Positions 4,331-13,548 of a DNA stretch of 64,000 nt are shown here, piece after piece (position 1 is the first letter of the stretch; every line of letters begins with the position of its first letter). The notes beneath the pieces are model-generated. The model made no database searches, was not told where the DNA came from, and saw nothing but the letters and a program-made list of their open reading frames with translations. Origin of the DNA: an uncultured SAR86 cluster bacterium (GTDB taxonomy: Bacteria; Pseudomonadota; Gammaproteobacteria; Magnimaribacterales; D2472); the NCBI GenBank assembly GCA_964276145.1, contig CAXYDN010000007.1:167122-231121 (forward strand), given 5' to 3'. Both the position numbers and the translations under genes were made by a program.

Positions 4331-6010
4331 TTAATTCCAATCTTTTAGAATGATATCAGAAGCTTTTTCACCAATCATGATTGTAGGTGCATTGGTATTG
4401 CCTCCGACCAATGTAGGCATGATTGAAGCATCCACAACTCTTAACCCATCAACCTTATGAACTTTTAATTTATTATTAACAACTGACATTTCATCCAATC
4501 CCATCATGCAAGTCCCAACTGGATGATAGACAGTGTCTGCTTCTTCTCGAATGGCTTTCTCAATATCTTCATCATCATCCATATCGATAGGCCTATAAAC
4601 ATGTTTACTTGTATATTTTGATAAAGGTTCTTTATTCATAATCTTCATCATTTTTTTATAGCCCTCAACCATATCTCTCATGTCATCTGGATGAGATAAA
4701 AATTTAGGGTCTATTTTTGGGTCCTCAAAAGGATCAGCTGAATTTAATGTTACCTGCCCTCTTGATTTTGGCCTTAAAAGACATGTGTGACAGCTTATAC
4801 CAGTCCCCCAAAGTTGTTGTCTTCCATGGTCTACAACCATTCCAGGTGCAAAATGAAGCTGTATATCAGGCACTGAAATATCATTCCTAGATCTTATAAA
4901 ACCTCCTGCCTCAGCAACAGTTGAAGTAAATAGTCCTGTCTTAGTAAAAATGTACTTCAAAATTTCATAAGGAAACTTAAAGAATATAGTTCCCAAAGAA
5001 AAACCTATTAGATTGATTGATTTATATTTATGTACGGAAAGATAGTCGATATGGTCTTGTAAGTTTTTACCAACTCCAGGTAGGTCAACTTTATGTTCGA
5101 TGCCATGTTTTATAATCTCTTCACTAGGACCAACCCCTGATCTCAATAAAATTTGAGGCGAACCAAAGGCTCCAGAAGATAGAAGAACTTCTTTTGTTGC
5201 TTTAACAAAAAATTCTTCTCCCTCTTCGTTGATACAATGAACACCCGAAGCTTTATTGTCGTCAATAGCTATTTTAGCTACATTAGTATCAGTCAATATT
5301 GTGAGGTTTTCTCTATCCAAAATTGGGACTAAATATGCTTTTGCTGCACTACACCTTTTACCGTCTTTTTGAGTGGTCTGATAGTAACCAATTCCCTCTT
5401 GGCTTTCTCCATTAAAATCTTCGTTATAGCCAAATATTGAAGAACCTGTTTTTACAAAATCATCTACCGATTTATTTTTGTGTCTTATTTTTGCAACGTT
5501 TAATGGTCCATTTTGACCATGAAAATTATCATCAAAGATTTCGTTGTGTTCAGCTTTTTTAAAATAGGGTAAAACATCATCATACGACCAGCCCTCATTT
5601 CCAAGTTCTGCCCAGTGGTCGTAATCCCATTTGTGACCTCGCACATATAGCATTGCATTAATTGAGCTTGATCCTCCTAAAGTCTTTCCTCTTGGCTGGT
5701 ATCCTCTTCTATGCTCTTGAACTTCATTTTCAATTTCATGCACTCCTCCAGCAGAGTCAACAACAGCTGTTGAAGGAGCTGTTACTGATACTTTTTCAAA
5801 TTCCGTTTGTGGCTCAGTATTATAATTCCAGCTATATTTACTACCCTCTCCTAGAAAAGCGAAACCTAAAGGGACATGCAATCGCATATCCGTATCTTTA
5901 GAACCAGCTTCAATGAGACACACATTAAAATTTGAATTTGCACTAAGCCTATTCGCTAGAACACAACCAGCCGAGCCAGCCCCTAAAATAATAAAATCAT
6001 AGCTTTTCAT
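4331..6010 (-). CDS. GMC-family FAD oxidoreductase (choline/alcohol dehydrogenase-like)
   Basis: [22 protein letters not shown]-binding fold and C-terminal HPVGTCMMG / [15 protein letters not shown] signatures. 559 aa. Confidence 0.9.
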
Positions 6011-6099
6011 TTATCAACACTCTAATTTATAGTCTCTTAAGTTTATGATTTCAAAAACAAACTGTAAACTTATATATTAATAAACAGCTAAGACATATT

Positions 6100-6849
6100 G
6101 TGAGTATTTTTAATAGTTTTCTAATCTTATGGATCGTGGTAGCAGCAATTACCTTTGTATATCTATTTTTTGTAAGTGCTCCATACGGCAGACATATTAG
6201 GACAGGATGGGGTAGAAATATTTCAGCAAGGGCAGGATGGGTAATAATGGAATCACCCTGTGTTGTCATAATGTCGGTCTATGCTTTCATTGTTAGAGAT
6301 AACTTAGAGACCGTACATATAATTTTTTTATCGCTTTGGATGCTGCACTACATTCACAGATCATTTATTTATCCATTTGTCATTGATATGACAAATCCTA
6401 AGATGCCAATAAGCATCGCAAGCTCTGCATTCTTTTTTAATATTGTTAATGTGAACCTGCAAGCATTTGGTATCTATTATCTTACTGAATATTCTTCGGA
6501 TTGGATTAATAATCAGATATTTTATATAGGACTGATTATCTTTTTTACAGGCATGTATATCAATATAAAGTCTGACTATCTTATTATTGCTCTAAGAAAA
6601 AATATGGGTCCTGGTTATCATCTTCCAACAAAGTTTATGCATAAATATATCTCTTCACCCAATTACTTTGGTGAAATAATAGAATGGCTTGGGTGGGCTA
6701 TTTTGACCTGGAGCATCTCTGGAGCTGTTTTTGCTCTATGGACTATAGCGAATTTATTGCCAAGAGCATTTACCCACCATCAATGGTACAAAGAAAAATT
6801 TCCTGATTATCCCAAAAATAGAAAAGCTATTATTCCTGGAATTATTTAA
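6100..6849 (+). CDS. 3-oxo-5-alpha-steroid 4-dehydrogenase (steroid 5-alpha-reductase) family membrane protein
   Basis: Polytopic membrane protein with the C-terminal SSPNYFGEIIEWLGWAILT motif. GTG start. Confidence 0.8.
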   Translation: MSIFNSFLILWIVVAAITFVYLFFVSAPYGRHIRTGWGRNISARAGWVIMESPCVVIMSVYAFIVRDNLETVHIIFLSLWMLHYIHRSFIYPFVIDMTNPKMPISIASSAFFFNIVNVNLQAFGIYYLTEYSSDWINNQIFYIGLIIFFTGMYINIKSDYLIIALRKNMGPGYHLPTKFMHKYISSPNYFGEIIEWLGWAILTWSISGAVFALWTIANLLPRAFTHHQWYKEKFPDYPKNRKAIIPGII

Positions 6850-7880: not shown

Positions 7881-9216
7881 TTACATATCGTTAGCTTCTC
7901 TCTCTAAAGCAGCAGCAAAAGATATTATTTGTTTATCTGCCCATGGTCTTCCTATAAAGGATAATCCAACTGGAAAATTATTGATTTTAAAATATGGGAT
8001 TGTTATGTGTGGAAGCCCTCCAAACGCAGCATAGCCGCCGTTACCAAAAGATAAAGTATCTTTAGTGGCTTCTCTATCTCCACCTTGATAATTAATTTTC
8101 CATGCAGGACCTCTAGTAAGACCAATAAATGCATCCAAATTATATTTATTCATGAGCTCTAATGTCTTGTTTTTTGAAGCCATTAATGCGGCTTTAGAGT
8201 TGCGATATTTATTTAAATCTTTAGCTGCATCTTCAGCAGCATAAAAAATTTCTTGATTAAAAAAAGGCATAACCACTTTAGAATTTTCATTATTAAAATC
8301 TATGATTTCTTTCAAGGATTTTTTTTCTTCCGACGAATGCTTAAGATAGTCTTCAAGCCCATATTTAAATTCATACAAAAGAACAAAATATTCTTCTGCA
8401 GATGGATATTTCCTTTCATCCTCAATGAAAATAATTTCACCACCAAGATCCCTAACATTCTGTATCAAGTATTTTTAAAAAATTTTTTCCATGTTCGCTA
8501 TTAAAACCCGAATCAAGTAAGCCAAATCTTTTTCCATTCAAAGTTTTATTGCTTGCAGCTTCTTTAAAATTAAAATCAAAGCTTGTTGGTATTTCTTTTG
8601 TTTTTAAGTCGCTTGAATCAAGGCCGGCTATACTTTGAAGAGTTAGAGCGACAATCTCAACAGATATACCAATAGGTCCTGCAGTATCTTGAGATTCTGA
8701 TATAGGTATTATTCCACTTCTGCTTACCAAGCCAAGTGTAGGCTTCATACCAACCACACCAACAACTGAAGCTGGGCAAGTTATAGAGCCATTAGTTTCA
8801 GTTCCTATAGCCACATCAACTATGCCTGATGCGACTGCAACTGCAGATCCAGAACTTGAGCCGCAAGGATTGTATTCTTTATTTAGTGGATGCATAGTTT
8901 GACCGTTAATACTAGACCAGCCGCTAATTGAGTTTGTTGACCTAAAGTTTGCCCATTCAGATAAATTAGCCTTACCTTTAATATGAAAGCCATTAATAAG
9001 TAATTTATCTATTAAAAACGCATTTTCTTTAGCAATATTATTTTTAAGTGCCAAAGATCCAGCAGAAGTAACGGTCCCCTTAATATCAATATTGTCTTTA
9101 ACAACAATATTTATCTTACTGGTATCTGTTGATGAGGGATATTCCTTAATTAATGCATTAAAATCATCTGCTTGAAGATGATGAAAGATAAACAAAAGAA
9201 GAAGATAATTTTTCAT
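7881..9216 (-). pseudogene. Amidase (amidase-signature family), split by a frameshift near 8455..8475
   Basis: The N-terminal ORF 8452..9216 carries the signal-like N-terminus and the CGSSSGSAVAVASG...GTETNGSI signature. The C-terminal ORF 7881..8468 continues the family in another frame (..IQNVRDLGGEIIFIED.., ..GLPHITIP..). The junction lies in GGAAAAAATTTTTTAAAAATACTTGATACAG. Confidence 0.7.
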
Positions 9217-13083: not shown

Positions 13084-13116
13084 AAAAAAAGAGAGCTAAA
13101 AGCTCTCTTTTTTTTA
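13084..13116. terminator. Rho-independent terminator closing the riboswitch/small-ORF unit
   Basis: AAAAAAAGAGAGCT-aaa-AGCTCTCTTTTTTTT. On the minus strand the hairpin is followed by a U-run 5 nt after the stop at 13121. Confidence 0.8.
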
Positions 13117-13120
13117 AACC

Positions 13121-13285
13121 TTACAAATAGTAAGGGAAAAATACATCCTTTTTAGGCTGTGACTTATTCTCAGTTTTATTTTGAGTACGTAAGTTATAGT
13201 TAAGCTTATTAATTGCAATTTGCAACATAACTGGGCTTCCTAGCTTAGGTGTATTTAGTTTTTTTTGAATGTTTAAAGCATTCAT
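13121..13285 (-). CDS. 54-aa basic protein of unknown function, riboswitch-controlled
   Basis: MNALNIQKKLNTPKLGSPVMLQIAINKLNYNLRTQNKTENKSQPKKDVFFPYYL. AAGGAG (13291..13296) lies 5 nt upstream of ATG 13285. The track's longer start at 13324 runs into the aptamer. Confidence 0.6.
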   Translation of the reverse strand: MNALNIQKKLNTPKLGSPVMLQIAINKLNYNLRTQNKTENKSQPKKDVFFPYYL

Positions 13286-13306
13286 AACATCTCCTTTTAA
13301 AAAGAT

Positions 13307-13354
13307 GCGTTCCTTCGGTATCATTACCTACTTCCGTCTCTTTAGAGATGAACG
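13307..13354 (-). promoter_or_regulatory. Glutamine-riboswitch-like aptamer (glnA RNA motif), ORF-proximal copy
   Basis: Minus-strand RNA: AUCGUUCA-UCUC[UAAA]GAGA-CGGAAGUAG-GUA[AUGA]UAC-CGAAGGAACGCAU. P1 is CGUUC/GAACG. The junction strings CGGAAGUAG and CGAAGGAACGC match my recollection of the glnA RNA consensus. Confidence 0.7.
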
Positions 13355-13362
13355 ATGATAAT

Positions 13363-13409
13363 GCGTTCCTTCGTCTTGCGACTACTTCCGTCCCCCTAGG
13401 GGATGAACG
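13363..13409 (-). promoter_or_regulatory. Glutamine-riboswitch-like aptamer (glnA RNA motif), distal copy
   Basis: Minus-strand RNA: AUCGUUCA-UCCCC[UAG]GGGGA-CGGAAGUAG-UC[GCAA]GA-CGAAGGAACGCAU. The junction sequences are identical to the other copy. Both hairpins differ in sequence but keep pairing (covariation). Confidence 0.7.
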
Positions 13410-13548
13410 ATAATTAATAGTAGCAAAGAAATAATTTATATACAAATTCTATATATAAACTTATATATTTTTTTTTTATACTTTAAAGAGTTTGGATAGC
13501 TTATTTCATAGATATATTAAATATTCAATATTTAATTATGGAGTAATT

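Follow-up and report, generated by a model that had tools for sequence, protein, structure and literature searches.

A tandem type-I glutamine riboswitch precedes a conserved 54-residue protein in a SAR86 bacterium and may form a nitrogen-status module

We analysed a window of 64,000 nt (the whole stretch of DNA considered here: contig CAXYDN010000007.1, positions 167,122 to 231,121) from the chromosome of an uncultured SAR86 gammaproteobacterium and focused on a short unit on its minus strand. Between positions 13445 and 13084 of the window this strand carries a predicted promoter, two adjacent glutamine riboswitch aptamers, a hairpin that takes in the Shine-Dalgarno (SD) sequence, an open reading frame (ORF) of 54 amino acids (aa) and a terminator, so that the unit is monocistronic and self-contained. 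A first-pass annotation, made from the letters alone, had described tandem glutamine-riboswitch-like aptamers in front of a basic 54-aa ORF. When we re-read the minus strand over this range, all of its sequence statements proved to be correct.

We searched both strands of the 64 kb with the 4227 families of Rfam 15 and found two matches to RF01739, the type-I glutamine riboswitch. Match 1 covers 13411-13360 (-) with 64.1 bits (E 7e-12) and match 2 covers 13356-13304 (-) with 64.3 bits (E 6e-12). Both exceed the gathering score of 35 and span the full model (positions 1-53). The sole other Rfam match in the window is a tRNA, and the additional matches of a permissive local scan were all sub-threshold noise. 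Both aptamers are of type I, far beyond chance, as the first-pass annotation had proposed from the conserved strings. It had also suggested the Downstream-peptide model (RF01704, Glutamine-II), which stays well below its threshold of 33, with scores of 14.0 and 12.0 bits. In aptamer 1 (13360..13411, minus strand) stem P1 is formed by 13409-13405/13368-13364, P2 by 13403-13391 and P3 by 13382-13373, the junction J2/3 is CGGAAGUA (13390-13383), and all pairs are canonical. In aptamer 2 (13304..13356, minus strand) the corresponding elements are P1 13354-13350/13312-13308, P2 13348-13337, J2/3 13336-13329 and P3 13328-13317. Each copy folds as a three-stem junction with the conserved strings AUCGUUCA, CGGAAGUA and GAAGGAACGCA, and P2 and P3 differ in sequence between the two copies with pairing retained. 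This covariation extends to 29 distinct short-linker tandem leaders from other genomes, which contain 19 P2a, 16 P3a, 14 P2b and 12 P3b distinct sequences and keep stems of at least 3 bp throughout, except for one P2a (L029) that was mis-parsed by the search pattern. In the Synechococcus aptamer, glutamine orders J2/3 and G23 enters the base of P1, where it forms the 'linchpin' pair with C60 just 3' of P1 (PMC11477058). The residues that correspond to G22/G23 and C60 in the numbering of that structure are present in both window copies, namely G13389/88 with the linchpin C13363 in aptamer 1 and G13335/34 with C13307 in aptamer 2. The aptamers also lie where a cis-regulatory element is expected, in the 5' untranslated region, with promoter-like elements upstream and an SD hairpin that covaries with the aptamer tail downstream.

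The expression platform is a hairpin at 13287..13308 (minus strand), supported by RNAfold and by covariation. The CAUCU/AGAUG helix of 5 bp that had been proposed to cover part of the SD is lengthened by RNAfold to 9 bp, from G13308 to U13287 (-6.8 kcal/mol), and covaries across lineages. In this hairpin G13308/C13307-AUCUUUU pairs with AGGAGAUGU, and AGGAG of the SD AAGGAG (13296-13291) is paired; its first nucleotide, G13308, is the last nucleotide of P1 and its second is the linchpin C13307. For the covariation analysis we gathered 60 distinct aptamer-plus-small-ORF leaders from genome scans. Counted from the linchpin C, the tail can form at least 5 bp with the segment just before the ATG in 88% of the leaders' own pairings, compared to 18% when tails were swapped between sequence classes. 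The compensatory tail/anti-tail classes are CAUCU/AGAUG in SAR86, CACCU/GGGUG in other proteobacteria, CACU/AGUG in an alphaproteobacterial metagenome-assembled genome (MAG; L080) and CGCCUC/GAGGCG in cyanobacteria. The SD hairpin has no U-run on its 3' side, which makes a transcriptional attenuator unlikely and points to translational control. The 3' strand of the hairpin itself contains an ATG (13290-13288), which opens a 2-codon mini-ORF (ATG TTA TGA) overlapping the real start at 13285; this mini-ORF is probably incidental to the helix sequence.

The direction of the switch can be approached through the gifB leader of Synechocystis, where, as Klähn et al. (2018, PMC6212724) noted, the ribosome-binding site is able to pair with the linchpin C and the bases that come after it. 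Reporter fusions of that leader switch expression ON as glutamine rises (PMC6212724). Since the window leader has the same design as this experimentally proven helix between tail and ribosome-binding site, we infer that it turns translation ON when glutamine is high. Architecture and covariation are seen directly in the leaders, and the direction is taken from this one tested homologous design. Without glutamine, the tail of aptamer 2 (C13307-AUCU...) would pair with ...AGAUG and bury the SD. With glutamine bound, the aptamer would capture the linchpin C13307 and the base of P1, the hairpin would weaken and the 54-aa protein would be translated.

The ORF MNALNIQKKLNTPKLGSPVMLQIAINKLNYNLRTQNKTENKSQPKKDVFFPYYL (13121..13285, minus strand) runs from the ATG at 13285 to a stop codon at 13123-13121, and its start sits 5 nt 3' of GGAG in a canonical SD. 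Among public metagenomes of the ocean we found 100 clusters of homologues at E <= 1, of which 99 reach E <= 2e-9; full-length matches are 67-98% identical, and certain clusters occur on more than 100 contigs. In total 25 residues are invariant, including the central LQ.A.NKL.YN.R and the terminal D.FFPYYL, and length variants differ by whole residues. When eight SAR86 genomes were pooled, synonymous polymorphism per site (pS) was 0.40 and non-synonymous polymorphism per site (pN) was 0.054 (pN/pS 0.14), and variable columns were distributed as 11/6/31 over the three codon positions. The 54-aa ORF of the first-pass annotation is a real gene under purifying selection. In 71 of the 100 clusters the call begins at an upstream ATG, and in every one of these the added residues are translated aptamer and platform, most often PKERIFLKGDV, with three variants that differ by one residue. 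Gene and riboswitch thus occur together in all cases in which the upstream sequence is visible, and to that extent the co-occurrence of peptide and aptamer that the earlier annotation had asked about is complete. The 67-aa ORF often reported by gene callers is an artefact of this kind: its start codon is an ATG in the P3 loop of aptamer 2, and aptamer and platform supply the first 13 codons. A 66-aa ORF at 13245-13445, which crosses the aptamers on this strand in a different frame, was likewise taken for an artefact.

The protein is very basic and largely helical, with the N-terminus MNALNIQKKLN and the invariant FFPYYL in a disordered C-terminal tail. AlphaFold2 with the family alignment predicts two helices (residues 3-11 and 18-41) followed by a disordered tail (42-54), at a mean predicted local distance difference test (pLDDT) score of 70. 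Searches of Pfam, NCBIfam and PDB sequences returned no match to the peptide, and an exhaustive HMMER search of 1.8 billion representatives with the profile of its family (family A, defined below) returned 8 clusters, all from the close family, and no remote relatives.

The promoter and the terminator were assigned from the sequence itself, from folding and from a comparison with relatives; a consensus scan for promoters and terminators listed neither. The sigma-70 promoter predicted at 13417..13445 (minus strand) consists of a -35-like TTGTAT (13445-13440), a spacer of 17 nt and an extended -10 element TGcTACTAT (13425-13417). About 6 nt lie between the end of these elements and aptamer 1, and transcription is predicted to start near A13411, the first nucleotide of that aptamer. 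The layout TTTGTATATA ... TGnTAnnAT recurs 5' of the first aptamer in nine family-A relatives, which supports its assignment as the putative promoter of the unit. The intrinsic terminator (13084..13115, minus strand) is composed of an A-tract, the stem GAGAGCU/AGCUCUC and a U7 tract. Its folding energy of -17 kcal/mol (z = -3.9) was equalled by none of 200 shuffles, so that the strong terminator described at first is upheld.

Next, we investigated the distribution of the riboswitch by a pattern search in one genome per GTDB species. More than 120 type-I aptamer loci were found, in cyanobacteria and also in many SAR11-type Alphaproteobacteria, SAR116, SAR86 and Porticoccaceae. In proteobacteria the downstream genes include amtB, glnA and gltB, and also genes for a circularly permuted ATP-grasp-like protein, a porin-like protein and a TonB receptor, as well as small ORFs; names other than amtB, glnA and gltB are our tentative reading of the translations. 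About 45 SAR86 loci were recovered in a scan for the SAR86-type platform. The tandem aptamers of SAR86 sit 5' of four groups of small basic ORFs, families A-D: family A, to which the window protein belongs, ends in FFPYYL; family B (46 aa) ends in NPFYP and includes the cultured SAR86 isolate HIMB1674 (L160); family C (53 aa) contains FLKPYYLDGSYGL; and family D has 43 aa. Downstream of the same riboswitch, ORFs of the DUF4278 type (IF17-type, with YRG repeats) occur in Porticoccaceae (L037/L108, 22.8 bits) and on a contig binned as Neomarinimicrobiota (L161, 27.6 bits), for a gathering score of 25.3. The L161 peptide is identical to one on a 93-kb viral contig (L216), and the MAG contig may be a mis-binned phage.

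Several other arrangements were observed in the same scans. At SAR86 loci within L125-L187, for example in SAR86E (L127), a single aptamer with this platform is followed by a conserved DUF4177-like ORF of 71 aa, which scores 24 bits where the cutoff is 25, and these leaders have a clear TTGACA-N17-TAnnnT promoter that ends about 7 nt 5' of the aptamer. Further outputs in SAR86 or unclassified gammaproteobacterial genomes are glutamate synthase (gltB; L084, L099, L114, L116), a TonB-dependent receptor (L018/L117) and an ATP-grasp-like protein of about 477 aa (L049, L079, L089, L093). The gltB leaders have a 9-bp hairpin CACCAAACU/AGUUUGGUG that begins at the linchpin C.

The SAR86-type platform was also found on 69 IMG/VR viral contigs (L188-L256), 67 of which have aptamers upstream of it. 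The downstream ORFs comprise 43 of family-B type (MTKYQ..RAVKK..LPxYITDNPFYP), 5 of a group that we call V1 (MTKLQAMAFK..FFVPDYLK), 11 that are YRG/DUF4278-like (e.g. L189, L206, L245, L248), 6 of a small DYPPNPY..KYY type and 2 others; 2 contigs are without an ORF. No copy was found by tblastn and blastn in GenBank isolate phages. Four of the contigs were checked for gene content. In L214 the module (6699-6729) adjoins the gene for the major head protein (phrog_138, E 4e-102), the contig of L230 (module at 6189-6216) encodes a phage ribonucleotide reductase, L208 shows a phrog_1314 match (E 5e-108) and encodes very large repetitive proteins that we take for tail fibres, and L229 showed an NAD synthetase match only. 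Compared among themselves by hhalign, the SAR86 families A, B and C gave no significant similarity (probabilities of 1-35%; 1.2% for A and B). In profile comparisons the phage intermediates tie B, C and V1 firmly together: V1 and B match with 96.7% (E 4e-10) and V1 and C with 95% (E 4e-8). Family A reaches 41% with V1 and 74% (E 3e-5) with V1 and C combined, the latter confined to a C-terminal motif of 12 residues. Judged by these alignments, marine phages carry small proteins of the SAR86 family B/C type under putative glutamine control. The window protein lacks the N-terminal helix motif MTK..(K/R)RAVKK of this SAR86/phage group, 'MTK(Y/L)Q..RAVKK..LPxYITDNPFYP / FFxPxYL'; it has the riboswitch leader of the group, and its C-terminus may, over 12 residues only, resemble the F-x-x-P-(Y/D)-Y-L aromatic tail. 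It may therefore be a member of a larger SAR86/phage group of glutamine-controlled small proteins.

The surroundings of the unit are those of a SAR86 chromosome, which agrees with the heterotrophic, gammaproteobacterium-like host guessed in the first-pass annotation. The GC content along the window is 29-36%, and the flanking genes form a gammaproteobacterial housekeeping set (secD, tgt, queA, proA, lepA, lepB, era, degP, glpK, nrdAB, mdh). Among public genomes, AG-390-L11 (L074), a SAR86 single-cell genome, is the most closely related, with 94% identity in the peptide and 91% in the neighbouring lipoprotein. The immediate neighbours of the cassette encode an M16 peptidase, a 270-aa lipoprotein, a 138-aa secreted protein, a 69-aa lipoprotein and a short-chain dehydrogenase/reductase (SDR); several of them belong to no family, and for two proteins next to the peptide the Pfam, NCBIfam and PDB-sequence searches were empty. 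In the relative L149 the cassette is placed between SDR/lipoprotein genes and an amidase gene. An amidase gene is also present in the window at 7881-9216 (minus strand), where it is broken into two overlapping ORFs of 254 aa and 195 aa that correspond to positions 51-241 and 298-444 of the Pfam Amidase profile. The break lies near 8452-8468 within A/T homopolymer runs, and the L149 gene is intact as a single ORF of 439 aa (5132-6451); the window copy is either a frameshifted pseudogene or a sequencing error.

Considering the unit as a whole, we propose, with a probability of about 0.6, that it is a nitrogen-status module in which glutamine switches on the synthesis of a protein that docks on a protein of nitrogen assimilation. 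The promoter would start the transcript at the first of the two type-I aptamers, and the product would most likely bind a larger nitrogen-assimilation protein, with glutamine synthetase as the prime candidate, and act as a brake when nitrogen is plentiful. From circumstantial evidence we infer an effector of nitrogen assimilation, because all outputs of this riboswitch class that can be recognised are nitrogen genes or proteins like the glutamine synthetase (GS) factors, because the leader is of the ON type like that of gifB, and because the protein is small and basic with an invariant disordered aromatic tail that resembles a docking motif. The link to GS factors draws on the DUF4278 ORFs that follow the same riboswitch in Porticoccaceae and on phage contigs. 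Several observations weigh against the proposal, and those that concern the tandem are given with it below. As the first-pass annotation had already remarked, the protein is not similar to IF7 or IF17: there is no DUF4278 match in Pfam, and hhalign gave probabilities of 0.3% against IF7-like and 0.1% against DUF4278-like alignments. No nitrogen gene is found among the neighbours of the cassette, and these neighbours vary among SAR86 relatives; we dropped synteny as a functional clue for both reasons. The presence of relatives of the small-ORF families in phage structural modules would also fit a function outside nitrogen metabolism, and the ON direction leans on the analogy with a single cyanobacterial leader. 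The protein might accordingly be no nitrogen regulator at all, and instead a basic protein that binds nucleic acid or the ribosome, or a phage-derived moron, with glutamine as a mere growth or nutrient cue. We consider this rather unlikely. It would accommodate the basic and helical character of the protein, its changing neighbourhood, the leader-plus-small-ORF modules on 67 phage contigs, one of them beside the major head gene, and the report that RF01739 is carried by SAR86 structural variants (PMC12379486). However, the other identifiable outputs of the class in our scans are all nitrogen genes, namely amtB, glnA, gltB and genes for DUF4278/IF7-like proteins, and the invariant aromatic tail looks like protein docking and not like nucleic-acid binding. 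A non-functional ORF, with the transcript acting as a glutamine-sensing small RNA or sponge, is highly improbable: a short unit with its own terminator does look like a small-RNA gene, and Yfr6 is a precedent for a coding transcript originally considered non-coding RNA, but the low pN/pS, the concentration of substitutions at third codon positions, the whole-residue length variants, the 25 invariant residues and the canonical SD all speak for translation. A further rival is the opposite polarity. In an OFF switch, glutamine would stabilise P1, the SD hairpin would stack on it coaxially and the peptide would be made only under nitrogen limitation. In SAR11-type genomes the same aptamer class lies 5' of amtB and glnA, genes that glutamine would logically repress, so both polarities must exist within the class, and Klähn et al. 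describe the direction of the glnA leaders as unknown (PMC6212724). Against this, the window hairpin starts exactly at the linchpin C and takes in the last P1 nucleotide, which means that ligand capture and hairpin compete, the only tested leader of this design is ON, and the amtB and glnA leaders differ strongly in their downstream sequence. We regard an OFF switch as quite unlikely here and retain the glutamine-ON module as the preferred interpretation.

A further question is why this module should contain two aptamers. Only 3 nt separate the Rfam matches and 9 nt the P1 helices, and there is no separate platform after each aptamer, as the sole terminator or SD structure lies 3' of aptamer 2. 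The tail of aptamer 1, CAUUAUC (13363-13357, beginning at its linchpin C), can pair with GGUAAUG (13328-13322), made up of the 5' strand and the loop of aptamer 2 P3. The resulting helix 'Alt-1', whose candidate strand at 13357..13363 (minus strand) was found by complementarity and folding, is present in the RNAfold centroid and is isoenergetic with the folded aptamer 2 (-23.6 and -23.9 kcal/mol). In most leaders with a CAUUAU linker Alt-1 has an ensemble probability of 0.5-0.75 (0.29 in L133), compared to 0.04-0.27 with shuffled linkers, and the P3b stem is at most 0.27 in most of these leaders, compared to mostly 0.4-0.9 after shuffling. This linker class is found in SAR86 families A and C, in Porticoccaceae and in the alphaproteobacterial MAG L080, where a U-to-C change converts a G-U pair of Alt-1 to G-C. 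The tail of aptamer 1, which has no platform of its own, would probably invade aptamer 2 P3; if so, two glutamines would be needed in series and the response would be steeper. That aptamer 1 gates the folding of aptamer 2 in this way is a tentative idea, to which we give somewhat less than an even chance. The two aptamers could equally be independent, either pseudo-cooperative or redundant, with a fortuitous complementarity between tail and P3, and we give this a similar chance. Tandem glutamine aptamers are common (157 doublets) and are classed as pseudo-cooperative, with several expression platforms (PMC9481103). Moreover, P3 of the GUAAUGAUAC type also occurs in single-aptamer SAR86 leaders without an upstream tail, family B and D leaders are without the Alt-1 helix, and the statistics of the duplex against shuffled tails are weak (fraction only 0.04-0.10, and 0.16 in L080). 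With two independent aptamers, however, the close spacing and the single SD hairpin would leave aptamer 1 without output, and both the balanced energies and the retention of Alt-1 in several lineages, including the U-to-C change in L080, would be coincidental. The near-invariance of aptamer 2 P3 was rejected as proof of linker pairing, since the same P3 flavour is found in the single-aptamer DUF4177 leaders.

Other tandem leaders suggest different wiring. In family-B leaders (L091, L137, L160 of HIMB1674, L180, L185) both aptamer tails read CAUCUU and either could pair with AAGAUG at the SD, so that an AND gate is possible. In SAR11-type amtB tandem leaders (L027 411-528, L033, L046, L120) the aptamer 1 tail CAUGC... 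has its complement in a conserved GCAUG 3' of aptamer 2, which suggests a long-range helix that encloses aptamer 2 and a tandem logic unlike that of SAR86.

Few heterotrophs of the surface ocean are as abundant as SAR86 bacteria, whose nitrogen sensing is essentially unstudied. The window locus and the about 45 related SAR86 loci name part of the organisms behind the metagenomic riboswitches, and they place small orphan proteins under the riboswitch in SAR86, as IF17 is in cyanobacteria. If these proteins act on glutamine synthetase or on another assimilation step, inhibitory control of nitrogen assimilation by small proteins would not be 'unique to cyanobacteria'; the phage-borne module would be a new kind of gene for taking over host metabolism, and a serial relay in the leader class of the window would be a tandem logic so far undescribed for this riboswitch class. 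A more far-reaching and improbable possibility is that families A-D and their phage relatives are independently arisen analogues of the cyanobacterial GS-inactivating factors, in a general circuit of streamlined marine bacteria in which a glutamine-ON riboswitch yields a small protein that throttles nitrogen assimilation; phages would have captured this circuit, and in the leader class of the window it would use a serial-relay tandem. The question can be tested now, as the cultured isolate HIMB1674 has a family-B version of the module and offers an experimental handle.

Novelty is more limited than the first-pass annotation had supposed. The class dates from 2010 and its tandem form, with the 157 doublets mentioned above, is well described (PMC2864571, PMC9481103). 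In 2018 the riboswitch was known only from cyanobacteria and from marine metagenome sequences of unknown affiliation (Klähn et al., PMC6212724), and RF01739 in SAR86 structural variants received a passing mention in 2025 (PMC12379486); our scans found it widespread in SAR11, SAR116 and SAR86. In a literature search we found no papers that describe the SAR86 small ORFs or their phage relatives.

Compared with known systems, the window unit is closest in design to gifB/IF17 of Synechocystis sp. PCC 6803 (PMC6212724), with which it shares the aptamer class, the pairing of linchpin C and tail with the region of the ribosome-binding site before the ATG, and a small monocistronic protein. It differs in its heterotrophic SAR86 host, in having two aptamers on one platform where gifB has one aptamer, and in a product that is unrelated to IF17/DUF4278 or IF7. 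Glutamine-II/Downstream-peptide RNAs (RF01704), which precede small DUF4278 ORFs in marine picocyanobacteria, are alike in placing a glutamine sensor directly before a tiny ORF; RNA architecture (12-14 bits in the window against the threshold of 33) and peptide family are different. Pelagiphage and Melnitz-like phages also carry RF01739-type aptamers (Buchholz 2022, PMC9004378). There the riboswitch was tied to transfer-messenger RNA (tmRNA) and to lysis timing, and downstream ORFs of the family B/C type were left undiscussed, whereas the window copy is chromosomal. The tandem glutamine riboswitches of marine metagenomes (Weinberg 2010, PMC2864571; Sherlock 2022, PMC9481103) likewise have two adjacent RF01739 aptamers in a marine bacterium, and the window aptamers probably come from the same sequence population as the original 'marine metagenome' hits. 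Those tandems were described 5' of genes for PII, GS, glutamate synthase (GOGAT) and ammonium transporters (Amt), with several platforms, while the window tandem has a 3-nt spacing, a single SD hairpin and an orphan ORF. The RNA is a known family in a barely noted lineage; what is new is the family of output proteins and the single-platform layout of the tandem.

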